Origin: an uncultured Gammaproteobacteria bacterium
Lineage (GTDB): Bacteria; Pseudomonadota; Gammaproteobacteria; Arenicellales; JAANXG01
DNA length: 64,000 bases
Direction: 5' to 3'
Assembly (NCBI GenBank): GCA_945787105.1
Contig: CALZGZ010000105.1
Span: 19,730 to 83,729 of the forward strand
Part shown: positions 8,919-43,653 of the stretch, piece by piece
How positions within the stretch are numbered: position 1 is the stretch's first letter
Layout of the letters: the number at the start of each line of letters is the position of its first letter
Translations under genes and position numbers: made by a program
Notes under the pieces: model-generated
Seen by the model: the letters and a program-made list of their open reading frames with translations, nothing else
The model's database searches: none
What the model was told of the DNA's origin: nothing

Positions 8919-9155
8919 GCCTGCATTTCTTACCAGGATCCCGGATGCTGACTCAGGGGTCGCGCAGCCGCGCGCCGCGCCTGGAGTGAGACCCATGCTT
9001 TGGGTCGAATGAAGCTCAAGCGCAGGTGTGGGAGGGCGAGTCAGGCCCGGGATAGCCGCGATTGCAGTAACACCCTGTACAACGTGGCGTTGGCCCGATG
9101 CCTTACACTCTACCGCGGAGTCGGAGTTTGCGCCGCCCTGGTCAGGAATGCGGGC
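8919..9155 (+). repeat. MITE-like element, copy A (degenerate)
   Basis: The left end 'GCCTGCATTTCTTACCAGGATCCCGGA' and right end 'CCTGGTCAGGAATGCGGGC'+TA align with the termini of copies B-D. The interior aligns with the conserved core ('...ACCCATGCTTTGGGTCGAATGAAGC...GGCCCGGGATAGCCGCGATTGC'). Confidence 0.6.
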
Positions 9156-9306
9156 TAGGTGCAGTAGACGATCGGCGGCATCCGGGCGAGATGGATGACC
9201 GTCTCATCGAGGCGGTCCGCGCCGGTCTGCTGCGCGCGGCGTGGCCCAATCACTTCGTTATCATCCGGTATGGTTGGTGCCCTATGCGGGCGGGGAACAC
9301 GTGTAA

Positions 9307-9825
9307 ATGAGCGGCATCCAGCAGATTTTCGTCAACTACGTCCCTGCCCAGGACCGCATACTGGTACGTGTCAGCACCATCGACAACACCGAGATGCGTA
9401 TGTGGCTGACGCGCCGGTTCATAACAGTCCTGTGGCCGGTGATGCTACAGATGCTCGAGTCCGATCCAAGTGTCGTTGGACAATCGGACACCCGGTCCAA
9501 GCAAGAAGTGCTTTCGTTCCGGCATGAGGAGGCGATCAGCAAAACTCGGTTCACCAAGAGCTACCAAACCCCGCCTCAGCTCAAACCGGTCAATCAGGTT
9601 CCGTTCCTGATCACCAAGCTCAGCACCAAGCGATTGGATAATGGCCGCACGCAGATGATATTCGGTACCGCTAAGGGCCGCAGCGTGCAGTTCGTTGTGG
9701 ATCGCACGCTCACCCATTCGTTGTGCAAACTGATCGCCGACTGCACGTCAAAAGCCAATTGGGGTCTTGAGTTGAAAATCGCCAAGTCCGCGGCGGCAGC
9801 GCCGGCTGACCGCACCATCAACTAG
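9307..9825 (+). CDS. hypothetical protein (172 aa)
   Basis: This is the only long ORF in the interval, with no competing ORF of similar length. I recognise no motif. Confidence 0.5.
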   Translation: MSGIQQIFVNYVPAQDRILVRVSTIDNTEMRMWLTRRFITVLWPVMLQMLESDPSVVGQSDTRSKQEVLSFRHEEAISKTRFTKSYQTPPQLKPVNQVPFLITKLSTKRLDNGRTQMIFGTAKGRSVQFVVDRTLTHSLCKLIADCTSKANWGLELKIAKSAAAAPADRTIN

Positions 9826-9965
9826 TGCGTGTTCTCCACATACCTGGGACCAAGATAGTCAAACTACGGGACAGTGCCTTTCCCCTGCTTTGCGGGGACC
9901 ATTCAGGCACGATACCTCGCAGCTCGCGGGTCCCCTTCAGCAAGACACATGCGGCACCCACGCAG

Positions 9966-10979
9966 TCATTCGTCAGTATTTCCCAATAAAGATTGTAACT
10001 TGTCGTGTAAGGTTCGGGGGATGTTGATGAACTCTGCGTCCGCGCGGGCGTCGCGGCGCCGGCTGCCCGGCAGACGCGTGCCGGGTTGCTCGAGCACCGC
10101 CGCGATGAGCGTCTCGAGGCGTTTGGTCAAGGTGCCGCCGGACAACGCCTCCCCATGCATTGCGATCATCAGTTGACCGACGCCGGGCGGCGGTCCGTCG
10201 GCGTTAAAAAACGACGACGCCTCGAATCCAAAATTGGCCCCGGTCAACGCCGCCGCGAGGATCTCCACCATCATCACCAAGGCGGCCCCCTTGGCGTCGC
10301 CCATCGGCAGCATGGTGCCCGCCATCGCCGCCTGCGGATCGGTGGTCGGGTGTCCCTCGGGATCTAGGGCCCAACCGGGGTCGATGGGTTCCGCGCGCTG
10401 GGCGGCGACCATGATCTTGCCGCGCGCGATCTTGCTTAAAGAAAGGTCGATGACCAACGGCGGCTGGTTGGCGCGCGGTACCGCAAACGCGATCGGGTTG
10501 GTGCCGAACACCCCGCTTCGTCCTCCCCACGGGGCAATCGCCTTGGGACTGTTGCCGAAGATCAGGCCCACCCGCCCACGCAGGGCAAGTTGCTCCACGT
10601 GATAACCCGCCTGACCGAAATGATGAGACCGATGCACCGCAGCGACCGCGATCCCGGTGTCGGCGACCAGGGTATCCAGTTCGCTGATCGCTCTAGCTAG
10701 TGCCGGAAACGCGAAGCCGTTGCCCGCGTCCACACGCACCGCCGCCGCAGCCACATGCCGGACAACCGGCAGCGCATGACCGTCGACCTTACCCGCCGCC
10801 GCCTGCGCGGCGTAACTCGGCAATCGGGACAAACCGTGTCCGGACTGACCGTCGATCTCGGCGGCGATGAGCGCATCGGTCACGCACTCGGCATTTTCCT
10901 GACTGGTGTTGTGGTGCAGCAGGATCGCGACGCCCAGCGACCGGCATTGATCGACGGGTAATGCGATAACATCGTTCAT
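9966..10979 (-). CDS. Ldh_2 family (malate/L-lactate/sulfolactate dehydrogenase type 2) oxidoreductase
   Basis: 337 aa with family-typical 'AEIDGQSGHGLSRLPSY' and 'HHFGQAGYH'. An ATGA start/stop overlap with the upstream gene lies at 10976-10979. Confidence 0.8.
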   Translation of the reverse strand: MNDVIALPVDQCRSLGVAILLHHNTSQENAECVTDALIAAEIDGQSGHGLSRLPSYAAQAAAGKVDGHALPVVRHVAAAAVRVDAGNGFAFPALARAISELDTLVADTGIAVAAVHRSHHFGQAGYHVEQLALRGRVGLIFGNSPKAIAPWGGRSGVFGTNPIAFAVPRANQPPLVIDLSLSKIARGKIMVAAQRAEPIDPGWALDPEGHPTTDPQAAMAGTMLPMGDAKGAALVMMVEILAAALTGANFGFEASSFFNADGPPPGVGQLMIAMHGEALSGGTLTKRLETLIAAVLEQPGTRLPGSRRRDARADAEFINIPRTLHDKLQSLLGNTDE

Positions 10980-11905
10980 GCCATTGCCAACACCCGCTTT
11001 ACGTTACTGGCGGTTACCGCGCTGACCCGTACGTTGGATTCCTCCGTCACCCCGGCGATGTGCGGCGTCAAGATGAGATTCGGTACGTTCCGAAAACAGC
11101 CACCTGCGGCGGCGGTCAATGGTTCGGTTGCGTAGACATCCAGCGCCGCACCGCCGAGCCGGCCAGCGACCAGCGCGTCGATGACCGCTTGTTCATCGAC
11201 GATGCCGCCGCGCGCGGTGTTGACCAACACCGCTTCGGGTCGCATGTCCGCGAGCAATGTCGCGTCGACCAGCCCACGGGTGGCGTCGTTGAGTGGGACA
11301 TGGATGCTGACTACGTCCGCGCCCGCGAACACCGGTCCCAGCTCCAGCTTCTGGACGCCGTCCCACGCGGCATCGTCGCCGGCCACGAACGGGTCGTGAG
11401 CAGCCACCGTCATGCCCAGTGCCCGGGCGCGGTCTGCGGTCTGGCGTGCAATACCGCCGAAACCCACGAGGCCCAGCATCTTGCCCTGAATTTCCCGGCC
11501 GACGCATGGTTGCCGCGGCCAATCCCCGGCAATGACCGCGGCATTGGCCCGGTAGCAGCCGCGTAGTAGAAACATTGCGGTAGCGATGACGTATTCCGCC
11601 ACCGCAGCATCGTTGGCGCCGGTGGCGGGACACACGGTAATGCCGCGCTGTTCGCATTCCGCGACGTTGATGTTGTCCAGCCCCACTCCCAGGCGGCCGA
11701 CCACCCGTAAGCGCTGCGCTCGCTCCAGCAATGCGCCGCGAACCGGGGTTCGATTGCGCACCACCAAGCCGTCGGTGTCGGTTATGCGTTTCAACAGCTG
11801 TTCGGGCTTGTCCACCAGATCCGGATCGTAGTAAACCTCAAAGTCGCGACGCAAATCATCGACCGCGGCTTCATCCATAAACTCGGTGATCAGGATCTTA
11901 GCCAT
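10976..11905 (-). CDS. D-isomer-specific 2-hydroxyacid dehydrogenase family, NAD-binding
   Basis: 309 aa with Rossmann motif 'GLVGFGGIARQ', plus 'NTARGGIVDE' and 'LTPHIAGVT' (catalytic His context). Confidence 0.85.
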   Translation of the reverse strand: MAKILITEFMDEAAVDDLRRDFEVYYDPDLVDKPEQLLKRITDTDGLVVRNRTPVRGALLERAQRLRVVGRLGVGLDNINVAECEQRGITVCPATGANDAAVAEYVIATAMFLLRGCYRANAAVIAGDWPRQPCVGREIQGKMLGLVGFGGIARQTADRARALGMTVAAHDPFVAGDDAAWDGVQKLELGPVFAGADVVSIHVPLNDATRGLVDATLLADMRPEAVLVNTARGGIVDEQAVIDALVAGRLGGAALDVYATEPLTAAAGGCFRNVPNLILTPHIAGVTEESNVRVSAVTASNVKRVLAMA

Positions 11906-11906
11906 C

Positions 11907-13076
11907 TCAGTCCTCGGTAAGACGTTGCAATTCAGCGTATAGGTCTTGCTTTAGTTCCACGCCAATACCCGGGGTGTCGTGACCGTGGGTGTAACCGTCG
12001 ACGATGGGTATGGCATCGGCGAATCCACCAAACGGTTGAAACACGCCGGGATAGGATTCCGCACCGCCGGTCTGGAGACCCAAGGCGATGTTCAACGCCA
12101 ACTGATGTCCGCCATGGGGAATGAGCCGACGCCGCGACCAACCGTGGGCCTCGGTCGCCTCCACTACCCGCATATATTCGGTGAGCCCGTAACTCAGGGC
12201 AGGGTCGAGCTGAACCCAATCCCGGTCCGGCCGCAATCCACCGTAACGCAACAGGTTTACCAGGTCCTGATGAGAAAACAGATTCTCCCCGGTGGCGATG
12301 GCGGCGGGATAATGCTGCGCCAAGGTGGCGTGCAGCAAGTAATCCAGCGGGTCCCCGGGTTCCTCGTACCAGAATAGATCATAGTCGCGCATCGCCTCGC
12401 CATACGCCAACGCCTGCCGCAAGTCGAAGCGGCCGTTCGCATCCACCGCGAGATTGTGGCCGTCACCGACCACCTCGAGCACTGCTTCAATACGACGCCG
12501 GTCGGTGTCGAGGTCGGCGCCGCCGATTTTCATCTTCACCACCCGATAGCCGGCGTCACGATATCCCCGCATCTCGGTCTGGAGCTGCGCGAGTTCTTTT
12601 CCCGGGTAGTAGTAGCCGCCACCGGGGTATACCAGGACCCGCTGATCACATTGGCCACCGTTGTATCGATCGGATAACAACCGCCATAACGGCTGCCCCG
12701 CGATCTTGGCCACCGCGTCCCATACCGCCATGTCCAAGGCGCCGGCCGCCACCGCCCGGTCGCCGTGTCCCCCCGGTTTCTCATTGGCCATGAATGTGTC
12801 CCAAATCTTGAAAGGATCGAGATTGTCACCGGCGTCGGTGCGCAGGCGTTCGGGATCGGCATCCATAATGCGGGGGATAAATCGCTCTCGCAGTATGCCG
12901 CCTTGTGCATACCGCCCGTTGGAGCAGAAACCGTAGCCGACGACCGGCGAACCGTCACATACCACATCGGTGATCAACGCGACGACGCTGACTGTCATGC
13001 GGCTGAAATCAATGTAGGCATTGCGTATTGACGAACCAATAGACGCGTTGCGCTCGCGTATTTCGACAATCCGCAT
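11907..13076 (-). CDS. enolase-superfamily (mandelate racemase/muconate lactonizing enzyme family) acid-sugar or tartrate-type dehydratase
   Basis: Motifs present: 'VVKMKIGG' (KxK), 'LAVDANGRF', 'LFWYEEPGDP', 'AIATGENLF'. The start is chosen at 'MRIVEIRE' (13076), which removes the overlap with tctB. The ORF track start at 13184 would run through tctB. Confidence 0.8.
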   Translation of the reverse strand: MRIVEIRERNASIGSSIRNAYIDFSRMTVSVVALITDVVCDGSPVVGYGFCSNGRYAQGGILRERFIPRIMDADPERLRTDAGDNLDPFKIWDTFMANEKPGGHGDRAVAAGALDMAVWDAVAKIAGQPLWRLLSDRYNGGQCDQRVLVYPGGGYYYPGKELAQLQTEMRGYRDAGYRVVKMKIGGADLDTDRRRIEAVLEVVGDGHNLAVDANGRFDLRQALAYGEAMRDYDLFWYEEPGDPLDYLLHATLAQHYPAAIATGENLFSHQDLVNLLRYGGLRPDRDWVQLDPALSYGLTEYMRVVEATEAHGWSRRRLIPHGGHQLALNIALGLQTGGAESYPGVFQPFGGFADAIPIVDGYTHGHDTPGIGVELKQDLYAELQRLTED

Positions 13077-13080
13077 AGAC

Positions 13081-13551
13081 CTATCCGATAAAAAGACGTC
13101 CGGTAGGGAGGGGGACCAACAATACCTTGGTGAATAGAAAATAGAATCCCAACACAATGGCGGATCCAACCAGCGGATAGACAATTAACCGCCCACGCGT
13201 CCACGGATCGTACATCGCCAGCCACACGATCGCGGCAAATGCCAACAGGCCGGATAACAAGAACCCGGTGTAGGGCATCAGCACCGCGGCGATCAGCATC
13301 GCGGTCACCAGGCCCACGCGGCGTGGTGTCGATTCGGCTCCTCGCGATTCGACGTCAATCGGGCGTACCAGACTCCAGGCGATCAAGGCGATACAAAAAA
13401 CGATCATCGATCCGGCAACGGTGCGGGGAAACACAAACGAGTCGGCATCGGTGTAATCGAAGGTGTCCCACAACGCTAACACGCCGATCAAAATGAAAAT
13501 CGCGGCGACGATCATGCCGCCGGTGTCGCGGGATTGCAGCTCAGTCGGCAC
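13081..13551 (-). CDS. tctB: tripartite tricarboxylate transporter small membrane subunit TctB
   Basis: 156-aa four-TM protein lying between the tctA and dehydratase genes. It overlaps the tctA stop by 11 nt. Confidence 0.75.
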   Translation of the reverse strand: MPTELQSRDTGGMIVAAIFILIGVLALWDTFDYTDADSFVFPRTVAGSMIVFCIALIAWSLVRPIDVESRGAESTPRRVGLVTAMLIAAVLMPYTGFLLSGLLAFAAIVWLAMYDPWTRGRLIVYPLVGSAIVLGFYFLFTKVLLVPLPTGRLFIG

Positions 13552-15049
13552 GGGCCATCTCCCGTTTGACGCGAAAACGGCTCAACAACAGAGGTGAAAA
13601 CAAAGACAACAAAATGAATGCGAAGATGCCCACCGAGATCGGCCGGCCGAAGAACTCGCCCCATAGATTCTCTGCCGCCGCGCCGATGATCCATCCTTGC
13701 ACGAAACCCTGCTCGGCGATAGATCCCAGTATCAGTCCCAACACGATGGGTGATGCGCTGAATCCGAACCGCCCCAGGACCCATCCCAATACGCCGAGGA
13801 TGATCATGATCGCGACATCGGAAACACTATTTCGAATCGCATAGGTCCCGATCAACGTCATGAAAGCGACGGTGGGCACCAGCAGCGCCTTGGGCACGGT
13901 GACGATGGAACGATAGGCGTAACGGCCGATCAACAAGCCGATCGGCAACATGAGCACGGTGGCGATCAACAGTCCCCAAATAAAGACATAGACAATTGAG
14001 CCATGTTCGGTAAACAAGTTGGGACCGGTGCGTACGCCTTGGATCAGCAACGCACCGAGGATCACGGCGTCCGGGGGCGTGCCGGGGATGCCGAGCACCA
14101 GGGTGGGGATGAAACCACCGCCCACGGTCGCGTTGTTGGCCGACTCAGTGGCCTGAACCCCCTCCGGGGCGCCATGGCCGAAGCTTCCCTGCTGTTTCGA
14201 CGATCGCCGCGCTTCGGAATAGGCGACCAATCCGGCAATGGAACCCCCGGCCCCCGGCAAGATCCCGACCAGGGTGCCAAGCACAGAGCTGCGCGCCAGG
14301 TTGAACTTGTTTCGCCACGAGATACCCAGCGCCTCATGCAGCCGGTATCCGCGTGAGACATTTTCCACCTTGAGATGGCGGTCGGGGGTCGCGACGAGAT
14401 CGATCAAAACCGGAATGCAATACAGGCCGATCAACGCCGAGACCGTTTCGATGCCACCGAGCAGGGTCTGGCTGTCAAAGGTCAAGCGCACGTCGGCGCT
14501 GATTTCAGCGACACCGATACAGGACAGCAACAATCCAAAACAGGCCCCGATCAGGCCCTTAAGCAGATTTCCCTGTGACAGCGCCGAGATCAGGGTCAGG
14601 CCGAGGATCGCCAGCCAGAAATACTCGACGGGTCCGAAGGAGAGCGCCACATTGGCGAGCGGTGGTGCCAGAAACAACAAGAACAGCGCCCCGACCAACC
14701 CCCCGCATACCGAAGCAATGCACGCGAGGGTAATCGCTAGATCGCCGTCGCCGCGTTTGGCCATCGGATAACCGTCGAAGGTGGTGGCGATCGCCGACGG
14801 CGTACCGGGTGTATTCAGCAGGATCGCGGCGTAGGCGCCACCGTAGATGGCGCCGGTATAAATGGCACCCATTAGGATCAACGCCGATGCCGGTTGCATG
14901 GAGAAGGTGATCGGTATCAACACCGCCACCGCCATGGTGGCGGTCAGCCCCGGCAGCGAGCCGACGACGGTTCCCGCCACCACGCCGCCGATTGCCAGCG
15001 CTACATGGTAGGGCGTGAGCGCTGCGAGTAAATAACCGAGGCTGTCCAT
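13541..15049 (-). CDS. tctA: tripartite tricarboxylate transporter large permease TctA
   Basis: 502-aa polytopic protein with family-typical 'GSLPGLTATMAVAVLIP' and 'GILPGAGGSIA'. Confidence 0.85.
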   Translation of the reverse strand: MDSLGYLLAALTPYHVALAIGGVVAGTVVGSLPGLTATMAVAVLIPITFSMQPASALILMGAIYTGAIYGGAYAAILLNTPGTPSAIATTFDGYPMAKRGDGDLAITLACIASVCGGLVGALFLLFLAPPLANVALSFGPVEYFWLAILGLTLISALSQGNLLKGLIGACFGLLLSCIGVAEISADVRLTFDSQTLLGGIETVSALIGLYCIPVLIDLVATPDRHLKVENVSRGYRLHEALGISWRNKFNLARSSVLGTLVGILPGAGGSIAGLVAYSEARRSSKQQGSFGHGAPEGVQATESANNATVGGGFIPTLVLGIPGTPPDAVILGALLIQGVRTGPNLFTEHGSIVYVFIWGLLIATVLMLPIGLLIGRYAYRSIVTVPKALLVPTVAFMTLIGTYAIRNSVSDVAIMIILGVLGWVLGRFGFSASPIVLGLILGSIAEQGFVQGWIIGAAAENLWGEFFGRPISVGIFAFILLSLFSPLLLSRFRVKREMARAD

Positions 15050-15092
15050 ACGACTGGCCGCCGCGAGTCAGCGGCGGCCAACCTCGATGAAA

Positions 15093-16052: not shown

Positions 16053-16086
16053 TTTTACCTCCCGTTAGATCGTTAATACAAACCTT

Positions 16087-17185: not shown

Positions 17186-17292
17186 GAAATTGAATCATGC
17201 ACAAACTCCCGGATGTCAGTGGGGTATAGCGGCGACTTTAGGACACCGCCATCATTCAATCAACTAATTGATTTAGATGAATTAACGACACC

Positions 17293-17541
17293 ATGAATGA
17301 AGCCTGTTACATCGGCAGTACCACCACCGGTCCGCGGTATATGGCGGTACAACATGAAATCGTCAACAACCTGATGCAAGGAGAGCGGATACCGGGACAG
17401 GCCATTCCCAATGAGTTTCGGTTGGTGCAACGTTATCGGGCCAGCATTGGGACATCGCGCAAGGTGATAGAAGGCATGGTCGCGGCGAGCATATTGATCC
17501 GCCACCCGGGTCGCGATTACACCGGAAGGGTTTATGGATAA
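17293..17541 (+). pseudogene. GntR-family winged-helix domain only (82 aa); effector domain absent
   Basis: 'GERIPGQAIPNEFRLVQRYRASIGTSRKVIEGMVAASILIRHPGRDYTGRV' matches the GntR HTH pattern. The ORF stops right after it, and only 88 nt remain before the next gene. It is divergent from the decayed uxaA-like gene. Confidence 0.55.
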
Positions 17542-17629
17542 CGTGCAGTGATAAATTTGCGCGCCGATCTTGCATTGTGGGCCAATCCTGATTGTTTCGG
17601 CCGTGATGCAAAGGGAAGAAAGATTGATA

Positions 17630-26979: not shown

Positions 26980-28071
26980 TTACTTCAGATAGATGGGTGG
27001 AATCTCGCGCTGCCGTTTGTAATCCTTGATGTAGAAAATAATCGGTACGCGCAGTTCTAGTTCATTGCCGACGATCTCGGGCGGCATCGTAGGAAACGGA
27101 TCCGCCCGCTTCACCATCTGCATGGCCTCTCCATCCAATAACGTATGCCCGGAACTGCGCTCTAACCTGGAGGTTAATACGTTGCCGTCGCGCCCAATGG
27201 TAAAAAGGACGATGACCGTGCCTTGTTGTCCCTCCAACCACGCATCCCGTGGATATCGCATGTTGCGTTGTAACCATCCCTTGAGCACCCCGGCGTACTG
27301 TGCGGTCACTCCGCGCACCAGCCGTTGTTGAACCGGTGAGGTAGGTGTTGGCGCAGCACGCGCGATCACATCCTCCGCAGGTGTCAACGGTTCGGTTTCC
27401 ACAGCGGGTCGTTCGGGAACACTTTTGATCTGTTGAGGAATCGCCGACGTGAGTTCGTCGAATTGGTTCCGCGGTGATGGAACGTACTCTACCGACGCGA
27501 CATCCTTGCCCGTTACTACATTTGGATGAATGGCCTCTAATTGTAATGATGTCACAGCCACTGGTGGCGCTGCGGTTGAAACGTCTCTCACCACTCGCTC
27601 CGCTTCGTAGACAATCTGGTTTTTTTCAGTCTCCGCACCCGTGGCTTGAGGATTTGGGAGCGACGCCTCGGCCTGGATCTCCGGGTTGGTAATAGTATTT
27701 ACCGGGGGTTCTTCCAACACCAACGGTGGCGCACTCAATACGTCCGATGCCTCACTGGTAAGCGCCTTGGTTGGTTCCGGTGGCGAGGCCGGTGGCGCCG
27801 GTTTGGCGGGTCGGATACTTGCGGCATCCAATGCATTACGCGGCTGAGTCAACTGGCTTCTTATATCGCTAACTGATTCGGCAGGCTGCGGCACAGGTGC
27901 GGCATGCTCCCGTTGTTGTCTAAGCTTGTCTTCCAGTGCAATGACGATGCCGGTGCTCACCATAGGTGGATCAACGCGTGCTGTCGGTTGGCTCAACCAG
28001 AGAAGCCCGAAAACATGAGTGGCGGTCGCCACCGATAGCGCCGCCCACCAGTGTGATGCGCGAATAACCAT
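26980..28071 (-). CDS. tonB: energy transducer TonB
   Basis: N-terminal anchor 'MVIRASHWWAALSVATATHVFGLLWL', a Pro-rich spacer, and a C-terminal TonB domain ('YPRDAWLEGQQGTVIVLFTIGRDGNV...LDGEAMQMVKRADPFP'). The start is set at 28071. The ORF track start at 28164 lies inside the inserted repeat. Confidence 0.8.
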   Translation of the reverse strand: MVIRASHWWAALSVATATHVFGLLWLSQPTARVDPPMVSTGIVIALEDKLRQQREHAAPVPQPAESVSDIRSQLTQPRNALDAASIRPAKPAPPASPPEPTKALTSEASDVLSAPPLVLEEPPVNTITNPEIQAEASLPNPQATGAETEKNQIVYEAERVVRDVSTAAPPVAVTSLQLEAIHPNVVTGKDVASVEYVPSPRNQFDELTSAIPQQIKSVPERPAVETEPLTPAEDVIARAAPTPTSPVQQRLVRGVTAQYAGVLKGWLQRNMRYPRDAWLEGQQGTVIVLFTIGRDGNVLTSRLERSSGHTLLDGEAMQMVKRADPFPTMPPEIVGNELELRVPIIFYIKDYKRQREIPPIYLK

Positions 28072-28073
28072 TA

Positions 28074-28390
28074 GCCCATATATTTCACCAAGGATCCCGG
28101 AAGCTGGCGAAGGGACTTGTCCTGCGCGTAGTTCCCCTGCTGTCCCCCTGCTGTGCGGGGACAAGGCGGGGACAAGTGCCGCGCTAGAACGAAATCCATA
28201 GCCGCAGCTATGGGTTGAGTGAATCGCAGGTTCAGGCGTTCGAGATAGAGCCAGGGCCGGGATAGCCCTGCGACTATTCTCCCGGAATAACCTGGAGACT
28301 CGTATGTTGCCATTTCAATTAAGTTACACGGTAAAGTTCTTAGCTTGGCACCATGAATAGTCGCAGCGCGCCTTGGTGCACTATGCGGGT
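28074..28390 (+). repeat. MITE-like element, copy B (317 bp), flanked by TA/TA
   Basis: Terminal inverted repeats: 'GCCCATATATTTCACCAAGG' (28074-28093) and the reverse complement of 28371-28390, 'ACCCGCATAGTGCACCAAGG' (15/20). TA lies at 28072-73 and 28391-92. The core 'GAAATCCATAGCCGCAGCTATGGGTTGAGTGAATCGCAGGTTCAGGCGTTCGAGATAGAGCCAGGGCCGGGATAGCC' is shared with copies C and D. Confidence 0.8.
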
Positions 28391-28800
28391 TACGGTTCGG
28401 GTCTTTCGGTCAACAACAGCAGTCGTTTCACACCGGCGTCCTTCAAGTGTTCCATAAGCCGAATTAGTGTAACAGCATCTAATCCAGCATCGGCTTTTAT
28501 TCTCACCCTCATCGCCGGTTCTTCATCCAGCAATTGTGTCACCGCGCTCAGCAGCAGATCTTGCTCCATTTCGTTATCATCGAGCGCTACGCGACCATCA
28601 TTGGAGATCAGGATCAGAATGTCGCGACGGGTATCGATCTGACCTCCGCTCGCGGAGGCCGGCGGCTGTATGTCCAGCACTTCCGGCGATGTGATTCGTC
28701 CCAACAACATGAAGAAGATAAGTAGCAGAAATACAATATTAACCAGCGGAACAATACTCGGTTCCTTGTAACCTCGGTCGCTAACCCCTCGCAGCTTCAT
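28390..28800 (-). CDS. exbD: biopolymer transport protein ExbD/TolR
   Basis: 136 aa with 'IVPLVNIVFLLLIFFML' as a single TM, followed by a periplasmic domain. Confidence 0.85.
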   Translation of the reverse strand: MKLRGVSDRGYKEPSIVPLVNIVFLLLIFFMLLGRITSPEVLDIQPPASASGGQIDTRRDILILISNDGRVALDDNEMEQDLLLSAVTQLLDEEPAMRVRIKADAGLDAVTLIRLMEHLKDAGVKRLLLLTERPEP

Positions 28801-32618: not shown

Positions 32619-34250
32619 TTGATGAAAAGCATCTATCACTGGATCGACCGGAATATCCTTGAGCTTGGGCGGGAGATGCGTCTGGCCTATCTGCCGCCAC
32701 TGATGGTGTATGTGGCGGCCGGTGTTTCGGGGCTCACTGGAATTGTCGGCACATTCTTCGTCAAGGATTATCTCGGCTTGTCTGCCACATTTCTCGCTGC
32801 CTTGGGATTTTGGGCCGGGATCCCCTGGGCGCTCAAGATGCCTTTGGGGCATCTAGTGGATCTGTTCTGGCGTTGGAAGTCGGCGCTGGTCTTTCTCGGC
32901 GCGACCCTCATCGCGCTGAGTCTTGTGATCATGATTGGTCTGCTCGGGTACCCCGATTTTATGCGCGAACTCCTGCCGGTAGATGCCTGGTACGTCGTCA
33001 GCGCGTTATTGGCGCCGGTAGGTTATGTGATTCAGGATGTGGTCGCGGATGCCATGACCGTGGAGGCGGTCCCGCGGGTAGATGACGAGGGGAAACCGAT
33101 TGATAGCGAGACCCGCCGCCTCATGCACACCACCATGCAGACTTTAGGGCGCGTGGCCATTATTGGCGGTAGTGTACTGGTGGCGGTGGTGAATATTGTG
33201 ATGTTTCAGGGTGCGGTGTCGTTGCCGGAGGCCGAGAAAGTTGACATATACCAGATGATCTACTCCCTGGCGTTGGCAATTCCGGTGATATCCGTATTGG
33301 GTGTGGTGCTCAGCGAAATGCTCAAGATCCGGGATGCCCGCCGTCTGCGACTCAAGGGGTTTGGCAAACAGGAAGTCAAGCTGATGCTCAAGGCGCAAAC
33401 CGAAGCGCCAGAGCCCAATTGGTGGATACTAGGCGGCAGTTTGCTGTTTGTGGTGTTCACTCTCTCGATCGGGCTGAGCGGTGTCTCCTACAACCAGGAA
33501 ATTATTTTCGCCGGATCGATGATCATTGTGTTGTTTCTGATCAATCGCCTGATTCGGTCCCTGGATAAAGATGCGCGTAGAATCCTGGTCGGCACTGCAT
33601 TGCTGGTGTTTGTGTTCCGGGCATTACCGAGTCCCGGCGCCGGATCCACATGGTGGATGATTGACGAGTTGAAGTTTGACCAACAGTTCCTCTCTGTTTT
33701 GTCCCTAATTGGTGGCAGCCTGACATTGCTGGGCATGTTTATATTTCGGCGATTTATGGCCGAACGATCGATGGCCTATATCATCGGCTTTCTAACGGTT
33801 GCCGGCACCACACTCTCGTTGCCAATTCTAGGGATGTTCTATGGTCTGCACGAGTGGACCGCCGCCCATACCAACGGTGTGGTCGACGCGCGATTCATTG
33901 CTCTGGTGGACACGGCGCTGGAGTCGCCACTGGGGCAGATCGCGATGATCCCAATGCTGGCTTGGATCGCTCACTCTGCGCCGTCTGATCTCAAGGCGAC
34001 CTTTTTTGCAGTGATGGCTTCGTTCACTAATTTGGCGCTGTCGTTGAGTCAGCTCGGCACCAAATACCTGAACCAGTTATTCAACATCACGCGTGAAGTC
34101 AAAGATCCTGCGGGGGCGATTATAATCCCGGCGGACTACGGTGATCTGGGCATGCTGCTGATCACGGTTTCGATCATCGGCTTCGCGCTACCGGTGCTCA
34201 CCATCGTGTTCGTGAAAATCAGCCCCCTCAAAGGAGTAGGGGATAAATGA
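32619..34250 (+). CDS. MFS-type membrane transporter (folate-biopterin transporter BT1-like)
   Basis: 543-aa polytopic ORF. 'GIPWALKMPLGHLVDLFWRWK' resembles the BT1 'PW.iKpl.G..sD' motif. The substrate is unknown. Confidence 0.55.
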   Translation: MMKSIYHWIDRNILELGREMRLAYLPPLMVYVAAGVSGLTGIVGTFFVKDYLGLSATFLAALGFWAGIPWALKMPLGHLVDLFWRWKSALVFLGATLIALSLVIMIGLLGYPDFMRELLPVDAWYVVSALLAPVGYVIQDVVADAMTVEAVPRVDDEGKPIDSETRRLMHTTMQTLGRVAIIGGSVLVAVVNIVMFQGAVSLPEAEKVDIYQMIYSLALAIPVISVLGVVLSEMLKIRDARRLRLKGFGKQEVKLMLKAQTEAPEPNWWILGGSLLFVVFTLSIGLSGVSYNQEIIFAGSMIIVLFLINRLIRSLDKDARRILVGTALLVFVFRALPSPGAGSTWWMIDELKFDQQFLSVLSLIGGSLTLLGMFIFRRFMAERSMAYIIGFLTVAGTTLSLPILGMFYGLHEWTAAHTNGVVDARFIALVDTALESPLGQIAMIPMLAWIAHSAPSDLKATFFAVMASFTNLALSLSQLGTKYLNQLFNITREVKDPAGAIIIPADYGDLGMLLITVSIIGFALPVLTIVFVKISPLKGVGDK

Positions 34251-38131: not shown

Positions 38132-38157
38132 ACGAGGTCAGACTCCGCCACGTGGTC

Positions 38158-39000
38158 CTAATTTGCCACCGATCCGTTAATGGCGTGGGCGCGAGTACGT
38201 AGCGCGGCAAATCCCGGATACTGAACGGCTTCGAGTACATATTTCTCCACGCTGTCGCGCCACGGCTCGCCTGTTTGCATGCGCGCGAGCAAAGTGTCCG
38301 CGTCGATCACCCGCGACCCGCCGACCGCGTGCACCCCCCTTACGAACAATGGGTCCGGCAGGCAGCCGGCCGAAGGCCCGATGACGGTGATCCATGTCGC
38401 GTCAGCGCAGTGGGGCAAGATATCGTCGATGGTATCGTTCAGCAGCGTGGCCGCGGTGCACAGGATCTTGTTACAGGTGTTGAGTTGCGCCGCGTCGAGG
38501 GTCACCTGAAAATTGATCTCCGATTGCATCAGTTCGGTCCGTTGTTCGATGACCGTCAACGGAATCCCGCGCTGACGCAGGTGATCGACGAGGGTCGGGA
38601 ACAGGCCGACCATACCCACGTGATCCTGCGGCTTAAAGTCCATGCCGCGCTGGCTCGGCGTCTTGTAACCCGCGCGCTTCAGAAAATGCTGGGTGATTGC
38701 ACTGATCGCGCCGAAGGCCAGGCCGCGCCGCCCGGCATCGTGGGAATTCAATTCACGGGCCAACGCCCACGCCGGTGAACCGGTCGTGGTTTCCTTGGTT
38801 GCCGCGCGCAGACGGGTAAGCGATTCTTCCTGGGATACATAGAACAGGCCCGCGCTGCCGTCGTCGAGGACTACCAAACCAAAGTCGGCGTGTGCCTTAT
38901 CATGCCGCACCGGTGGCACATAGACACGACCCACACGTGGTAGCGTAAATTCATCGTGAATAGTTCGAGTCAATGCGAGAATTTCGGGTACGATACTCAT
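38158..39000 (-). CDS. DUF364/DUF4213-like (putative metal-chelation Rossmann-like) protein
   Basis: 280-aa ORF. The overall pattern ('VGMVGLFPTLVDHL...PLTVIEQ', 'ILCTAATLLNDTID') recalls DUF364. This is a recognition-level call only. Confidence 0.5.
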   Translation of the reverse strand: MSIVPEILALTRTIHDEFTLPRVGRVYVPPVRHDKAHADFGLVVLDDGSAGLFYVSQEESLTRLRAATKETTTGSPAWALARELNSHDAGRRGLAFGAISAITQHFLKRAGYKTPSQRGMDFKPQDHVGMVGLFPTLVDHLRQRGIPLTVIEQRTELMQSEINFQVTLDAAQLNTCNKILCTAATLLNDTIDDILPHCADATWITVIGPSAGCLPDPLFVRGVHAVGGSRVIDADTLLARMQTGEPWRDSVEKYVLEAVQYPGFAALRTRAHAINGSVAN

Positions 39001-39078
39001 TCCGATTGATTAAAGCCGGGTTCTGTATCTCGCGTCAAACCAGGGCACGGTGGAGCCGGTGACCTTTACATATTTGTC

Positions 39079-39471
39079 ATGACGAATCTTGTTGCATTGC
39101 ATACCGGTAGACCCAATGCCCCTACCAAGGATGAGGAACGTATCTATGAGGCGCATATCGTGATTCAACTCGGCGCCGGACGCGCCATCTACTGCGAACG
39201 GCTTGGGCGGCTGTACTTCTTCGACGCCCCCGACAAGCAGATCGGGACTACCGTGCGAGCGGCACTACGAGGCCTGGGGCATAAAGCCGACATTCAGCCG
39301 GTGGAGCTCGACCAACACCGGTATATGGCGGTCGGCAAGAAGGTGCAATTGGACGACTCGCAGTTGGAGACGGTGTTTTCCGCCCTCGCATTATTGGGCG
39401 TCGCCGTCGAACGGGGTGATTCCGATATTCTGCGCCGCGCAATGTTGGGCGCCGGGCGGTCTTCTGGTTGA
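39079..39471 (+). CDS. hypothetical protein (130 aa)
   Basis: The ORF fills the gap between two convergent or divergent genes. No motif recognised. Confidence 0.4.
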   Translation: MTNLVALHTGRPNAPTKDEERIYEAHIVIQLGAGRAIYCERLGRLYFFDAPDKQIGTTVRAALRGLGHKADIQPVELDQHRYMAVGKKVQLDDSQLETVFSALALLGVAVERGDSDILRRAMLGAGRSSG

Positions 39472-39477
39472 GGTGCC

Positions 39478-40452
39478 TCAGCGTGCCGGTGCAACGAATG
39501 CCAAGCTGGTCGCTAGCGTCAGACCATGGGCCAGGGCGCTGGTAATAGTCAGTTTGATTGGTGTCACGAGTCGCGCGGATTGTTCGGCATACTGGATCAA
39601 ATATGCCGCCGCCCGTGCCGCGATGACCAAGGGTAGCAACGATAATAACGTGATGGCCGGCGCGATTCCGGTTATGACCGCAATCAGCAAAATGCTGCTC
39701 GCGGCGAACACATTGGCGACATAGATCCATTTTCCGCGTTCTGGACCCAAGCGCACCACCCAATGATGCTTACCGGCCGAGGCGTCGGCCAGGCGATCCG
39801 GAAACTGGTTGATATAAAGTATATTGGTTACCAGCAGGCCGTAGGGTAGACACAGCAGCAGCAACTCCCAATCCCAGCTCTGCCGTTGCACAAAGTCGGT
39901 GCCCATGGGTATCAAAATACCGAAACCCAACGCGACACAAGGCTCCCCCCAACCGCGGCTGTTGAGATTGAAAGGCGGCGCCGAATACGCCCAACCGACG
40001 AACACACCGATGGCGCCAATGGCTAGTAAACTCCAGTGGCTGGCAAAGGTCAGTAGCAGACCGATGCCAATTCCGCCGGCGAGCAACGTTAAGCCGTAGT
40101 GCAGGGTTTGTGTTTCGGTGAGCACCTTATTCTGGATGAACCGGCTGCCCCCGGTGAACGGGAATATGCGTTCGTTGTTATGGGTGTCACTGCCGTTCAA
40201 CGCGTCGTAGTAGTCGTTCAGCACGTTGATGGCAGCGTGAATAGCCGTCGCCCCGATGAGCGTCAACAACACTGTGGTCCAATTCAAAAACCCGCCGCGA
40301 TAGTGTGCATAGGCAAGGCCCAACATGAATCCCGCAACCGTGATGGTGAGAAACGGCGGCCGTGTCGCCAACCAGTAACGCCGCAACGGATTCTTCAATG
40401 TCTCCGATGTGGGCTCGAGCGTTGCTGGCTGTACAGAGTCTGCCTTCATCAA
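39478..40452 (-). CDS. UbiA-family prenyltransferase (MenA-like)
   Basis: 324-aa polytopic protein with Asp-rich motif 'NVLNDYYDALNGSD' and a MenA-like N terminus 'YWLATRPPFLT'. Confidence 0.7.
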   Translation of the reverse strand: MMKADSVQPATLEPTSETLKNPLRRYWLATRPPFLTITVAGFMLGLAYAHYRGGFLNWTTVLLTLIGATAIHAAINVLNDYYDALNGSDTHNNERIFPFTGGSRFIQNKVLTETQTLHYGLTLLAGGIGIGLLLTFASHWSLLAIGAIGVFVGWAYSAPPFNLNSRGWGEPCVALGFGILIPMGTDFVQRQSWDWELLLLCLPYGLLVTNILYINQFPDRLADASAGKHHWVVRLGPERGKWIYVANVFAASSILLIAVITGIAPAITLLSLLPLVIAARAAAYLIQYAEQSARLVTPIKLTITSALAHGLTLATSLAFVAPAR

Positions 40453-40872
40453 CGTTGATCGTGTGCTGGTTATGAGTGGATTGGATAGGCTGCCGACCCC
40501 TATTATGCAACGATTCGTCGCGAAGGAAATTGCCGGTCTGGGGTGGCGCTTGGAGTCATCGTGACCGTGTCCGGGTTATTGGAGGTCACTTACCGGCTCA
40601 GGCCCCAAAGGCACTTAATTTAGGTTTCGGGCCAAACTGAACCGCGGAAAAAGTTCCAGGACCCGCCGTAAATACGTCCATGTAGGCTCGACGCCAGCAT
40701 CCCTGCTGGCGACGGTCCCGGAAATTCTCCCTCAATTCAGTCCTCGCAGCTCCTTTTAGGTCGCAACTACTCTGACCCCGTATGTGCTAACGGTGATTGT
40801 AGGCAGTACGGGTAAACTGTCGGCAATCCCCACGTCATGCAAGTAGCCCGCAGTATGCACCAATGTGGGCTA

Positions 40873-41117
40873 GCCTGCATATTGTACCAAGGCGGCGAAA
40901 TAATGGTTTATCAACTTGATTGTATTCAATAATTCGGTCTTAGGCGAATAGTACAGTTTGTGCTTCGGCAATCGCCTATCCTGGCTCTGGCTCGATCTCG
41001 AACGCCTGCACTTGCGCTTCACTCAACCCATAGCTCGCTATGGGTTTCGTTCCAGCGCGGCGTTCAGACGCCCGATCTCTTCGCCAGCTTCCGGGATCCT
41101 TGGTGCAATATGCAGGC
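40873..41117 (-). repeat. MITE-like element, copy C (245 bp), inverted relative to copies A, B and D, flanked by TA/TA
   Basis: Terminal inverted repeats: 'GCCTGCATATTGTACCAAGG' (40873-40892) against the reverse complement of 41098-41117, 'GCCTGCATATTGCACCAAGG' (19/20). TA lies at 40871-72 and 41118-19. The interior reverse-complements to the core shared with copies B and D. Confidence 0.8.
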
Positions 41118-41210
41118 TAGCCATTGGTTTGAATGAAGAGACTCGCGCAATTTTCCGTGTGACGGTTTGTACCCGGGTAGGCGTCTAGTCGCTTTGTTGC
41201 AATATACGGG

Positions 41211-42737
41211 CTAAAGCTGTAGGACCGCTATTAAGCGATCCCAATCCGGGGCCGACGTGGTGTCTACGTCAATGCACAGACCCCGCTCATCCGCCGTCAG
41301 CGGCTCGCGTGATTGTAATTGCTGCTGCAGCACCGCCACCGTCGCCTCTGAGGCATCCGGCCGTGCTTGCGCCCGTTTCTCGATACGTTGTACCAATTCC
41401 GCCGGGCCCGCGTGGCAGTGCAGGATGTGGAACGGCACACCGAGGCGCGCGGCCAACTCGCGGAATTGCCGCCGTCGCCCGGCGTTGATGAAGGTAGCGT
41501 CGACGACCACCGGGTAGCCGCAACCGATAATTCGTTCGGCGAGCTGCAGCAAGCCTTGATACACACGCTCGATGTTCTGTTGACTGTAGCGTGCGACAGC
41601 GTTGATGCCGGACCGCCGGCGCTCAATATCGGAGCGGATGCGGGTGATGCCGGTACGCTCGACAAGCCGTTCGGTGAGCCAGGTTTTGCCGGAACCGGAC
41701 ACGCCGTGGGTGATGATCAATGGTAGTGACGTTGGTTGGTGCATCAAGGTCGCGGCCAGGGACAGGTGGCGCACCACATCTCGGTCCTGGCGCCGGCGCA
41801 ACGCGTGGAATTGTTGGCGTTGTATGCACGCGACTTTGGCGCGCACCAGTGCCCGGTACACCAAGTAGTAGCGCAGCACCGACAGCGCCTCATAATCACC
41901 GGTGTGTTCCAGGTAACGTAGCCACAGCCGCTGGGAGAAGTCTTTCCGATCATGGTAATCAAGATCCATCATCGCGAATGCGACGTCGCTGGCGACGTCG
42001 ATCCATCTCAATTGTGGGTTGAATTCCAGACAGTCGAACAGGCGGACCTCGCCGTTGACCAGCACCATGTTTGCCAAATGCATGTCCCCGTGGCATTCAC
42101 GAACCGACCCTTGGACGAGCCTGCCGGTGAACGCTGCGGCGAGCCGCTTTGCCGAGTCTTGCGTCCAATCATGCAGGTTCTGCAGTTGCTTTTGTTCTTG
42201 GCCGTTAACGCAAGGGTTGATGTGCGGGAAGTTATCCATGGCGCGCTCGCGTACCCGCTCAGCGGTGGAGTAACCCGACTCGGGAGCGGCGACCTTCGCC
42301 TGCTGATGAAATTCGGCCACATGTTGCGCCAAGTCGTCGATGTGTTCCGACTTGATGTGGCCCGCGCGAACCATGTGATCCAAACGGTCCGGTTCATGGA
42401 ACTGACGCATTTTTACCGCGTATTCAATCACCTTACCGTCGCCGCCGACGCGGGGATCGTCTTCACTACCGGTAATCGGAACCACGCCCAGATACAGCTC
42501 CGGCGCCATTCTCCGGTTCAAGCGCAGCTCCTCCTCGCAAAAAAACAGGCGCTTCTCGAGGGTGGAGAAGTCGAGGAAGCCGAGGTCGACCGGTTTTTTG
42601 ATTTTGTAGGCAACGTTACCGGTCAGCAGGATGTACGAGATGTGCGTCTCCATCACCTCGAAGCCGGTCACCGGGTGATCGAACAACTCCGGCCGTTGCA
42701 GACGCTCGATCAACACCGGCCGCTGTGACTCAACCAT
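41211..42737 (-). CDS. bifunctional protein: aminoglycoside-phosphotransferase-like kinase domain plus P-loop (AAA_33-type) kinase domain
   Basis: The N part has the Brenner-type motif 'CHGDMHLANMVL' and 'IDVASD'. The C part has Walker A 'HGVSGSGKTW'. Confidence 0.75.
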   Translation of the reverse strand: MVESQRPVLIERLQRPELFDHPVTGFEVMETHISYILLTGNVAYKIKKPVDLGFLDFSTLEKRLFFCEEELRLNRRMAPELYLGVVPITGSEDDPRVGGDGKVIEYAVKMRQFHEPDRLDHMVRAGHIKSEHIDDLAQHVAEFHQQAKVAAPESGYSTAERVRERAMDNFPHINPCVNGQEQKQLQNLHDWTQDSAKRLAAAFTGRLVQGSVRECHGDMHLANMVLVNGEVRLFDCLEFNPQLRWIDVASDVAFAMMDLDYHDRKDFSQRLWLRYLEHTGDYEALSVLRYYLVYRALVRAKVACIQRQQFHALRRRQDRDVVRHLSLAATLMHQPTSLPLIITHGVSGSGKTWLTERLVERTGITRIRSDIERRRSGINAVARYSQQNIERVYQGLLQLAERIIGCGYPVVVDATFINAGRRRQFRELAARLGVPFHILHCHAGPAELVQRIEKRAQARPDASEATVAVLQQQLQSREPLTADERGLCIDVDTTSAPDWDRLIAVLQL

Positions 42738-42767
42738 CGATGGATGTGCTGCGGTTAGCCCATGCGG

Positions 42768-43235
42768 CTATTCTTTGACCGAAAAACTCGCGATCTTAGG
42801 CCGTACGAGCTTGTCAAAGTCGTCGTACGCAAGGCGCACTACCTGTGTATGGGTACCGGCATTGAAGGCAATGTCGTCGTCCTCCTTGAGCATTTCGTCG
42901 ACATAGGTGTCCATACCGTATAGGTTGCCAAACGGTGGCATGGCGCCCACCTCGCAGCCGGGAAACAACTGTTGAAACTCCTGCTCGGTGGCAAGACTGG
43001 TGTCGCCAGCGCCTGCCGCGGTCGCCAGCCTGTCTAGATCGACGTGCCGAGACGCGGGCACCACCGCCATGGCGATGTTTCCGTCTATCTTCACCATCAC
43101 CGCTTTAGCGAACTCACGCCTTGGCACCAGCGTCGACGCGGCCACCTCGCGGGCGGTGTACACCGGCGAATGATCGATGGTGATGTACTTAATGTGATGG
43201 CTGTCAAGGAATTCCCTGAGTTTTTCAACCGGCAT
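42768..43235 (-). CDS. YbaK/aminoacyl-tRNA-synthetase-associated (deacylase-like) domain protein
   Basis: 155 aa. 'AKAVMVKIDGNIAMAVVPASRHVDLDRL...GAMPPFGNLYGM' fits the YbaK/ProX-type fold pattern. Confidence 0.65.
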   Translation of the reverse strand: MPVEKLREFLDSHHIKYITIDHSPVYTAREVAASTLVPRREFAKAVMVKIDGNIAMAVVPASRHVDLDRLATAAGAGDTSLATEQEFQQLFPGCEVGAMPPFGNLYGMDTYVDEMLKEDDDIAFNAGTHTQVVRLAYDDFDKLVRPKIASFSVKE

Positions 43236-43362
43236 GATTGTTCTCGCTATATAAATCTCATTGAAAGCACTTCACCACGAAAAGAGGTGTAACAACCATG
43301 ACTTCGGTCAAGTGACCGCTGCGGAACCACACAGCCCGCAGCGTCGTACTTTGGAGTGGCTA

Positions 43363-43653
43363 ACCCCCATATTGCACCAAGGATCCGGGATGATGGCGAC
43401 GGGATCGGGTGGCTGGTTCCCCTGCTGCGCGGGGACAAGCGCCGGACTGGAGTGAAATGCATAGCCGTAGCTAAGGGTTGAGTGAAGCGCAAGTCCAGGC
43501 GTTCGAGACCGAGCCAGCGCCGGGATAGACCCGCCTCTATTCATGGTCTGCACCGGGGAGACCCGCAACGTCTCGTCTATGATGTGGCGAAATTCGATTC
43601 TCAAAGTTGCTTGGCAAGAATAGAGGCGGGGTGCCTTGGTGCAATATGCGGGT
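43363..43653 (+). repeat. MITE-like element, copy D (291 bp), flanked by TA/TA
   Basis: Terminal inverted repeats: 'ACCCCCATATTGCACCAAGG' (43363-43382) against the reverse complement of 43634-43653, 'ACCCGCATATTGCACCAAGG' (19/20). TA lies at 43361-62 and 43654-55. The core is shared with copies B and C. Confidence 0.85.

Follow-up and report, generated by a model that had tools for sequence, protein, structure and literature searches.

The window analysed here, a stretch of 64,000 nucleotides from an uncultured Gammaproteobacteria bacterium, contains four copies of a short non-coding repeat, at 8919–9155 (copy A), 28074–28390 (copy B), 40873–41117 (copy C) and 43363–43653 (copy D). Copy C lies on the minus strand and the other three on the plus strand. 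As the original prediction had it, each copy sits between co-directional genes, and the four intervals belong together. They align end to end, with similarity that spans their whole length rather than short low-complexity stretches, and the only full copies that a four-copy nhmmer profile detects in the window are these same four (E-values 1e-95 to 1e-61). Beyond them, the profile search returned one older degenerate copy that hosts the nested copy C, and a fragment adjoining copy A. The copies are only 237–317 bp long and thus unable to encode a transposase, and no transposase domain was found among the window genes, including the Pfam list of the same-strain locus L190.

The features first ascribed to the repeats can be read from the sequence. 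The terminal inverted repeats (TIRs) match at 19/20 positions in copy C, 19/20 in copy D and 15/20 in copy B. The alignment contains the subterminal block GATCCCGGAAGCTGGCGAAG and the core hairpin CCCATAGC..GCTATGGG, and the core terminates in GGATAG. TA brackets copies B, C and D on both sides; at copy A it is present only on the right, the left side reading CA.

Copy A (nhmmer, 203 bits) is the oldest and most degenerate of the four window copies. Its element proper spans 8920–9154, with a hairpin domain at about 8936–9056, and is flanked by CCAG (8916–8919) and CTAG (9155–9158); the left CA is read here as a CTAG mutated to CCAG. A weakly matching degenerate left-end fragment, comprising TIR and subterminal block, adjoins it on the minus strand at about 9243–9291 (nhmmer E=3.5e-4, reading GCCCGCATAGGGCACCAACCATACCGGATGAT) and may be the remnant of an element that copy A abuts or is nested in. 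Copy B (element proper 28075–28389) is flanked by TTAG (28071–28074) and TTAC (28390–28393), the latter overlapping the stop codon of an ExbD/TolR-like gene (28390–28392, minus strand). Inside its hairpin domain (about 28092–28266), a 22-nt GC hairpin module is tandemly duplicated. Copy C (element proper 40874–41116) is the canonical 245-bp form, with CTAG on both sides (40870–40873 and 41117–41120), a hairpin domain at 40975–41099 on the minus strand and an AT-rich right-hand module; MAG ES_M_Gamma_066 carries near-identical copies. The degenerate short copy into which copy C is inserted lies on the minus strand at 40847–41210 and has about 120 bp of its own sequence, recognised from weak nhmmer matches and from TIR remnants, GCCCGCAGTATGCACCAATG (plus strand from 40846) and GCCCGTATATTGCAACAAAG (minus strand from 41211). 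Its flanks are GTAG (40843–40846) and CTAA (41211–41214), and the CTAA holds the stop codon of an AAA_33 kinase-like gene. Copy D (element proper 43364–43652) has a hairpin domain at about 43381–43528 and lies between CTAA (43360–43363) and TTAA (43653–43656); the right flank forms the rtcB stop codon (43653–43655, minus strand).

Family anatomy, abundance and empty sites

Across the family, the TIRs are 19–20 bp long (CCYGCATATTGCACCAAGG) and are conserved in more than 60 copies. An imperfect hairpin domain of about 125 nt, running from GGATCC to GGATAGG, lies immediately inside the left TIR, and the right-hand module of 60–130 nt varies between subfamilies. Element size ranges from 77 to 382 bp, and no ORF is preserved across the aligned copies. 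The left end occurs at 65 loci in species-representative genomes, 26 of which belong to a single MAG. Nearly all hosts are uncultured Gammaproteobacteria, Lysobacterales or Wenzhouxiangellaceae MAGs; two of the 65 left-end loci, those of a Ruminococcus and an Anaerolineales MAG, probably match by chance. Alignment of 39 full-length copies yields a young 245-bp cluster and several subfamilies. Copies nest in each other and decay, and some have lost the hairpin. The high copy number suggested by the window is borne out by dozens more copies with unrelated flanks in related MAGs and metagenomes; copies with both ends number more than 60 there, and their flanks differ beyond YTAR.

Relatives also provide orthologous unoccupied sites at two insertion points. 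The rtcB/ybaK spacer, in which copy D resides, is filled in the window and in the related locus L066 and empty in L067 and L068. The empty allele in L067 reads CAAGGGG-TA-GCC, and in the window and L066 the element is bracketed by TTAA...TTAG. The site of the outer element at copy C is likewise empty in L067, reading AGCTT-TA-GTTGCATGACG. The empty allele has a single TA-containing tetranucleotide, and the filled allele has one on each side. The elements insert. The empty sites and dispersed copies support the original MITE-like reading, in which the repeats are TIR-bounded, non-coding, multi-copy and mobile. With TIRs, a target duplication relative to the empty allele, small size without a transposase and many dispersed copies, the four repeats very probably represent a family of non-autonomous DNA transposons (MITEs) with many members in one group of uncultured Gammaproteobacteria. 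The element is of an ordinary kind, but the family frequently inserts at stop codons, and the conservation of its strand-specific internal hairpin is unusually good.

Target site and partner transposase

TA is present at 56 of 65 left ends and 51 of 65 right ends, and the junction tetranucleotide is YTAR at 102 of 130 ends. Most of these are CTAG, the rarest tetranucleotide in this genome, found in the window at 0.23 of expectation. The predicted TA duplication stands insofar as TA is duplicated at filled relative to empty sites; however, base statistics make a 4-bp YTAR containing TA the likelier unit. When a 4-bp duplication was tested against a 2-bp one, the inner-left and outer-right bases were identical (Fisher p=4.7e-5), as were the outer-left and inner-right bases (p=0.002), and the complementarity of the two inner bases was not significant (p=0.23). 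Judged from these statistics, the duplicated target is most likely the whole YTAR, mostly CTAG, and not TA alone. IS5 is reported to target 5'-YTAR-3' and to duplicate the entire tetranucleotide (PMC5009759). The flanks of the present family fit the same habit, and both the junction counts and the direct-repeat statistics point to the 4-bp YTAR duplication that marks the IS5 group. A duplication of this kind weakens the earlier suggestion of an IS630/Tc1-type transposase and favours an IS5-like insertion habit.

IS630 itself duplicates only TA within a preferred CTAG. An IS630/Tc1-mariner-type MITE would do the same, and its terminal R...Y bases would belong to the element. TA is indeed the invariant centre of the flanks, and the 4-bp fit is statistical rather than absolute, as 9 of 43 informative copies suit TA-plus-TIR better; nine copies have complementary end bases and unequal tetranucleotides. 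The D site adds to this, since its unequal flanks (TTAA and TTAG) are the same in the window and L066 despite different right-hand internal modules, which is easier to obtain through a 2-bp duplication and two independent insertions. A precedent is RUP of S. pneumoniae, a 107-bp MITE of high copy number with a TA-containing target, attributed to IS630-Spn1 and mobilised in trans (PMC2229807). The present family resembles RUP in being small, non-coding, TIR-bounded, abundant and inserted at TA-containing targets. However, RUP is 107 bp long and its TIRs match a known IS, whereas the present elements are 245–320 bp, have no partner found, probably duplicate 4 bp and contain a long conserved internal hairpin. 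Several features argue against a 2-bp duplication. The bases beside TA covary as direct and not as inverted repeats. Nine copies with non-complementary end bases nevertheless have identical, non-palindromic tetranucleotides (CTAA/CTAA or TTAG/TTAG), and in the young 245-bp cluster the supposed first base of the element alternates between G and A in an otherwise invariant TIR. The related loci contained no IS630-type gene near the copies. The IS630/Tc1-type candidate is thus left unsupported, and we regard this origin as unlikely.

A REP/BIME/REPIN-type palindromic repeat, spread via single-stranded DNA by a RAYT (Y1 HUH) transposase, would account for the strand-specific hairpin described below, and the present elements are abundant and intergenic. 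This reading is nonetheless highly improbable given the clear 19–20-bp TIRs and the target duplication at filled versus empty sites; to our knowledge, REP/REPIN elements have neither. Typical of REP/REPIN elements is a short GC hairpin headed by a conserved tetranucleotide, and the present elements measure 245–320 bp and include a non-palindromic right module. Furthermore, a paralogue screen of all ORFs in the related loci, which was not RAYT-specific, revealed no multi-copy gene of any kind.

A full-length IS with the same TIRs, named in the original prediction as something to look for, was not found. No autonomous element with these TIRs occurs in 190 related loci (~1.2 Mb), in PLSDB plasmids or in the window, and the transposase family is therefore a candidate only. 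TIR pairs 0.9–2 kb apart and ORFs beside lone TIRs yielded no partner in the related loci, and neither a whole copy nor the left end matched anything in plasmid searches. A single viral-contig match, which lacked a YTAR flank, was set aside as chance. The TIR strings are not mentioned in the searchable literature. The present elements end in CC..GG and start CCYGCAT, whereas ends of the IS5 group are GG/GA, those of IS5 starting GGAAGG; IS5 is also autonomous and about 1.2 kb long, and no IS5-type gene was linked to these TIRs in the loci searched. The IS1380 family, with CC ends and a 4–5-bp duplication, offers another lead for the partner.

In the mechanism we propose, a DDE-type transposase supplied in trans would cut YTAR (mostly CTAG) with a 4-bp stagger, and the cut tetranucleotide would be duplicated as in IS5; both steps have good statistical support. 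Because YTAR contains the TAR stop, many insertions would fall on stop codons, and the duplicated tetranucleotide would restore the stop. About a third of copies lie on the TA of a gene's stop codon with the stop regenerated; at 24 of 65, the flank TA plus the next base serves as the stop codon of an adjoining ORF of at least 80 codons.

The internal hairpin

The original prediction placed a short hairpin in a conserved core. Core and hairpin are both present, but they do not constitute a separate motif: they are the 3' arm of a long hairpin, the 5' arm of which is the subterminal block. The MFE z-score of copy C is -8.7. Two subfamilies were analysed apart; a mixed alignment misaligned the hairpin. 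In the distant subfamily, 94.8% of cells are paired and 21 of 48 pairs are changed on both sides; in the window subfamilies, the values are 94.5% and 11 of 40. None of 500 shuffles equalled either result. G·U cells outnumber A·C cells (54 vs 4 and 49 vs 14); read on the opposite strand, these G·U pairs would become A·C mismatches. The top strand is the stabler one in 27 of 27 sequences, by a mean of 14–21 kcal/mol. The right module has no comparable strand asymmetry. On these alignments, compensatory changes have preserved the hairpin in both of the diverged subfamilies. The excess of G·U over A·C and the stability of one strand suggest a single-stranded, RNA-like role. We infer, less firmly, that the left hairpin may function in single-stranded form with a fixed polarity, most likely as RNA; it could be a transcript leader of the parent element or belong to the MITE itself as a cis-acting part.

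A coding role for the core was considered and rejected. Its frame reads L-S-E-A-Q-V-Q-A-F-E-I-E-P-x-P-G-stop with some third-position changes, but upstream 2-nt loop indels disrupt it, as does a TAA in copy D, and it has no start codon or ribosome-binding site. The frame is also absent from the distant subfamily, and the same bases form the 3' arm of the covarying hairpin. Short ORFs in the right modules of copies B and D were dismissed as well; they lack conservation, and a covarying stem is formed by their ends. Rfam gave no match at gathering score in the window and chance-level matches only for copy C and one distant-subfamily copy. A promoter and terminator consensus scan of copy C found none inside the element.

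The conserved hairpin could be a working RNA module, such as a small RNA, a 3'-UTR stabiliser or a processing site at gene ends, in which case selection would act partly at the level of the host and the element would not be purely selfish. Compensatory changes and the strong G·U excess are what such a module would display, and insertion at stop codons places copies in 3' UTRs. Correia and ERIC elements provide a parallel, as they are reported to alter mRNA processing and stability (PMC10969869). However, orientation relative to the abutting gene is mixed, with reading into the right end in 16 cases and into the left end in 8, so host read-through would mostly make the weaker-folding strand. 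The sites are also polymorphic between close relatives, copies decay and lose the hairpin, and the Rfam and consensus searches provide no match. An RNA module serving the host is, on this evidence, decidedly doubtful. Also tentative, and in our judgement unlikely, is the broader proposal that the ~125-nt hairpin is a functional strand-specific element, either one that the MITE needs (as RNA, or as single-stranded DNA for mobilisation or transposase control) or an RNA module delivered to gene 3' ends. If true, a MITE lineage would have evolved under selection for an internal structure, and its partner transposase might come from an undescribed group (CC..GG ends, YTAR target).

Hairpin-forming repeats in other bacteria share some of these properties. 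Correia elements also duplicate TA. In Neisseria, RNase III processes the hairpin-folding transcripts of Correia/NEMIS elements (PMC10969869). Like the present family, they are bacterial MITEs with hairpin-folding sequence; however, their hairpin is formed by the TIRs and they carry promoters and an IHF site, whereas the hairpin of the present family is internal, separate from the TIRs and adjacent to one of them, and the scan of copy C revealed no promoter consensus. The CIR repeats of Caulobacter and Brucella have a predicted RNA with two hairpin arms and a linker instead of one end-to-end stem (PMC2229807). They are comparable as intergenic repeats with separate hairpin arms, but bear only a partial resemblance to MITEs, unlike the present family with its TIRs, target duplication and empty sites. 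ERIC/IRU elements are imperfect palindromes at gene 3' ends that change transcript stability (PMC10969869). The present family is likewise often inserted at 3' ends of genes, but ERIC is a single 127-bp palindrome with no sequence relation to it.

Significance for the host lineage

Many MITE families have already been catalogued in large surveys, and such elements are common; thus, one more family is no surprise. Because insertions are polymorphic between close relatives, the family serves as a marker of recent genome dynamics in an uncultured gammaproteobacterial lineage. The rare CTAG/YTAR target, often located at stop codons, illustrates how a transposon can become dense in a compact genome while leaving genes intact. 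The copies will mislead gene callers, which extend start codons into them and meet stop codons that the junction provides. Among the features described, only the covarying, strand-specific hairpin could reward experimental work. Were it required for mobilisation or active as RNA, it would be an unusually clear case of selection on structure inside a bacterial MITE.

The Element Family in the Window and Beyond

The original prediction of four noncoding copies bounded by terminal inverted repeats (TIRs) holds on reading and alignment. The intervals 8919-9155 (copy A, +), 28074-28390 (copy B, +), 40873-41117 (copy C, -), and 43363-43653 (copy D, +) share the TIRs, the GATCCCGGAAGCTGGCGAAG block, the CCCATAGC..GCTATGGG hairpin, and a core ending in GGATAG. 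Across the 64 kb of the window, a profile derived from the alignment matches these four intervals, and no others, as full copies (E-values 1e-95 to 1e-61), and extra TIR-like ends match it weakly. The predicted TIR match counts (19/20, 19/20, and 15/20), the TA flanks (CA/TA at copy A), and the co-directional genes on either side of all four copies are also correct. A degenerate left-end fragment adjoins copy A. Additionally, an isolated sequence resembling a TIR, GCCCGCACATTGCACTAAGG (17/20 matches to the consensus, then TGGCGAA), lies in an intergenic spacer at 6590-6656 (-). No partner end was seen, and this sequence is possibly a remnant, or else matches by chance.

The window is ordinary chromosome with 56% G+C. 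Its genes include those for a nitrate reductase gamma subunit, NarK-family nitrate/nitrite transporters, c-type cytochromes, TctA and TctC transporter components, TonB-ExbBD, RtcB, the ribonucleotide reductase large subunit, Lon, and Znu. Neither a domain search of the window genes nor the Pfam list of a same-strain locus (L190) revealed a transposase domain. The longest ORF of a TonB-family gene (26980-28164, -) begins at a TTG within copy B, and 90 nt of its predicted N-terminus is MITE sequence. The true start is probably downstream of this TTG, and the extended ORF exemplifies how MITE copies can mislead gene callers.

A left-end scan with CATATTKCACCAAGGATCC, using one genome per species, found 65 loci, which agrees with the predicted presence of further copies. 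Nearly all are in uncultured Gammaproteobacteria, Lysobacterales, or Wenzhouxiangellaceae MAGs, with 26/65 in one MAG and 15/65 in another. The 39 full-length copies recognized by the profile in the scanned loci and the window form three groups. The first, which includes copy C, is a young cluster of 245-bp copies that are nearly identical. The second comprises longer subfamilies of the copy B and D types, with a common left half and different right-hand modules. The third is a more distant subfamily of 244 bp from other MAGs; it retains the TIRs, GGATCC, the apical CATAGC..GCTATG hairpin, and CCGGATAGGAC. Scanning metagenomes yielded further copies along with deletion derivatives (77-380 bp). 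Flanks are unrelated between copies past four bases. One MAG contig (L052) holds three copies within 2.4 kb (3928-4196, 5745-6012, and 6038-6283), two of them just 25 bp apart. The right-hand module of the 245-bp type (40873-40974 in copy C) has 41-44% G+C, compared with 56% for the genome; within it lies the palindrome ATCAAGTTGAT, a possible protein-binding site.

Mobility and Target Duplication

Relatives of the kinase-like gene between copies C and D (81-89% identity) lie on contigs syntenic with the window, and these contigs provide the anticipated empty sites. The D site, in the rtcB/ybaK spacer, is empty in two of them, L067 and L068 (CAAGGGG-TA-GCCACTCC in L067), and filled in the window and in L066, with a TA-containing tetranucleotide on both sides. 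Copy C is nested within an older, degenerate short copy (40847-41210, -), whose own site is empty in L067. L190 (99.95% identity) has both C and D. Together, the empty alleles, the nesting, and the decay indicate transposable-element behavior. In a BT1-family transporter gene (32619-34250), a stretch of ~62 bp (33068-33130) is missing from the otherwise 99.95% identical L190 contig, CALZIS010000009.1, with products of 543 aa in the window and 521 aa in L190. This stretch is not a repeat, and its absence may reflect either strain variation or the assembly.

In a set of 65 two-ended copies (130 ends), TA is found at 56/65 left and 51/65 right ends, and the junction tetranucleotide is YTAR at 102/130 ends (CTAG 57, CTAA 19, TTAG 17, and TTAA 9). 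Either TA alone is duplicated and the adjoining R...Y bases belong to the TIR, or YTAR is duplicated and the element begins at CC. As expected for YTAR, the bases beside TA behave as direct repeats in the 39 informative copies: the inner-left base agrees with the outer-right one (Fisher p=4.7e-5), and the outer-left base with the inner-right one (p=0.002). The complementarity of the two inner bases that TA alone would require is not significant (p=0.23). Moreover, nine copies read CTAA...CTAA or TTAG...TTAG despite non-complementary "end" bases, and this "end" base varies in the young cluster while the remaining TIR is invariant. Nine copies fit TA alone, and at the D site the flanks are unequal in one and the same way in two genomes with different right-hand modules, which is easier to explain by TA alone. 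Because of the direct-repeat base matching, the nine non-palindromic cases, and the young-cluster variation, the duplicated target is probably the 4-bp YTAR, on statistical evidence. YTAR duplication is the reported habit of IS5 (PMC5009759); thus, apart from the copies that fit TA only, the flank statistics do not match the IS630-type habit originally proposed.

At the D site, the copies in L066 (5107-5375) and the window (43363-43653) occupy one rtcB-stop-codon site with flanks TTAA / TTAG. Their right-hand modules are unalignable, and one lacks the GC hairpin module described below. This may reflect one old insertion followed by exchange of internal modules between MITE copies, or two independent TA-type insertions into the same site.

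CTAG is rare in the window (57 observed vs 243 expected, 0.23); CTAA and TTAG reach about 0.38-0.39 of their expected counts, and TTAA reaches 0.59. MITE copies border several of the 57 CTAG sites. For 24/65 copies, the flank TA and the next base form the stop codon of an ORF at least 80 codons long; the window has three such genes: exbD/tolR (copy B), rtcB (copy D), and the kinase-like gene (outer element at C). Since the insertion either duplicates the tetranucleotide or brings an element that starts with R, the gene always regains a TAG or TAA stop and is therefore not lengthened.

A Covarying Hairpin in the Left Half

The predicted "subterminal block" and "core" are both present; rather than separate motifs, they are the two arms of one hairpin. 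In the fold of copy C (z = -8.7), the stretch from GGATCC to GGATAGG makes up a single long, imperfect hairpin with the CCCATAGC..GCTATGGG stem as its cap. The distant subfamily (12 sequences) and the window subfamilies (15 sequences) were analyzed apart. Respectively, 94.8% and 94.5% of cells are paired (32-42% and 20-38% in slid controls), and 21/48 and 11/40 pairs are changed on both sides, which 0/500 shuffles reached in either set. G·U cells outnumber A·C cells (54 vs 4 and 49 vs 14). For example, ATCCCGG/CCGGGAT becomes ATCGCGG/CCGCGAT, ATCCGG/CCGGAT, or ATTTGGG/CCCAAAT, and TTTACAG/CTGTAAA becomes TTTGCGCAG/CTGCGCAAA. In two copies, an unrelated perfect hairpin replaces the apical stem in the same place, and in a series of deletion derivatives the hairpin is lost symmetrically, starting at the apex. 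The RNA strand reading inward from the left TIR is the stabler in 27/27 sequences, by 14-21 kcal/mol on average; no strand bias was found in the right-hand module. A 22-24-nt GC hairpin module, TTCCCCTGCTGTGCGGGGACAAG, has a fixed place inside the MITE hairpin (28134-28176 and 43417-43439), is tandemly duplicated within copy B, and is confined to these elements in all DNA searched (16/16 occurrences). A stand-alone hairpin at 9880-9902, between convergent genes, resembles it with 3 mismatches.

The compensatory upkeep and the one-strand G·U excess point to a hairpin that acts as a single strand of fixed polarity, most simply RNA. Many insertion sequences fold their 5' ends, blocking outside transcription or hiding the ribosome-binding site, and the hairpin would fit the leader of a parent element's transcript. 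It would also fit a cis-acting part of the MITE itself, as the retention of one 244-245-bp architecture in two diverged subfamilies suggests. The hairpin is less likely to serve the host in 3' UTRs, given that genes read into the right end 16 times but into the left end 8 times, that insertion sites are polymorphic, and that a search of copy C for promoter or terminator consensus found none.

Candidate Partners and Relationship to Known Elements

A full-length element with these TIRs did not turn up among TIR pairs at IS-like spacing or ORFs beside lone TIRs, nor in paralogous ORFs, in plasmids, in viral contigs, or in the literature. The transposase could be IS5-like, judging by target habit, or belong to IS630 if TA alone is duplicated. 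An IS1380-like enzyme is also a candidate, given the CC ends and 4-5-bp duplication of that family. In one Lysobacterales MAG, three contig ends (L010 4637-4896, L033 910-1133, and L030 1-340) have the left end of the distant subfamily, which breaks off at the apical hairpin and gives way to a multi-copy sequence (…GGTGATATTGCCATGTTCAG…), part of which occurs in both orientations. This sequence might be another hairpin-targeting mobile element or a lead to the autonomous partner.

The family has all structural hallmarks of a MITE except a known partner, and it resembles RUP, Correia, and ERIC in its way of working (PMC2229807, PMC10969869). A REP/REPIN identity was rejected based on the TIRs and duplication, and a known RNA family was rejected because Rfam gave no match. 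This is a new MITE family within a known class of element, and its strand-specific covarying hairpin and YTAR/stop-codon targeting are worth follow-up.
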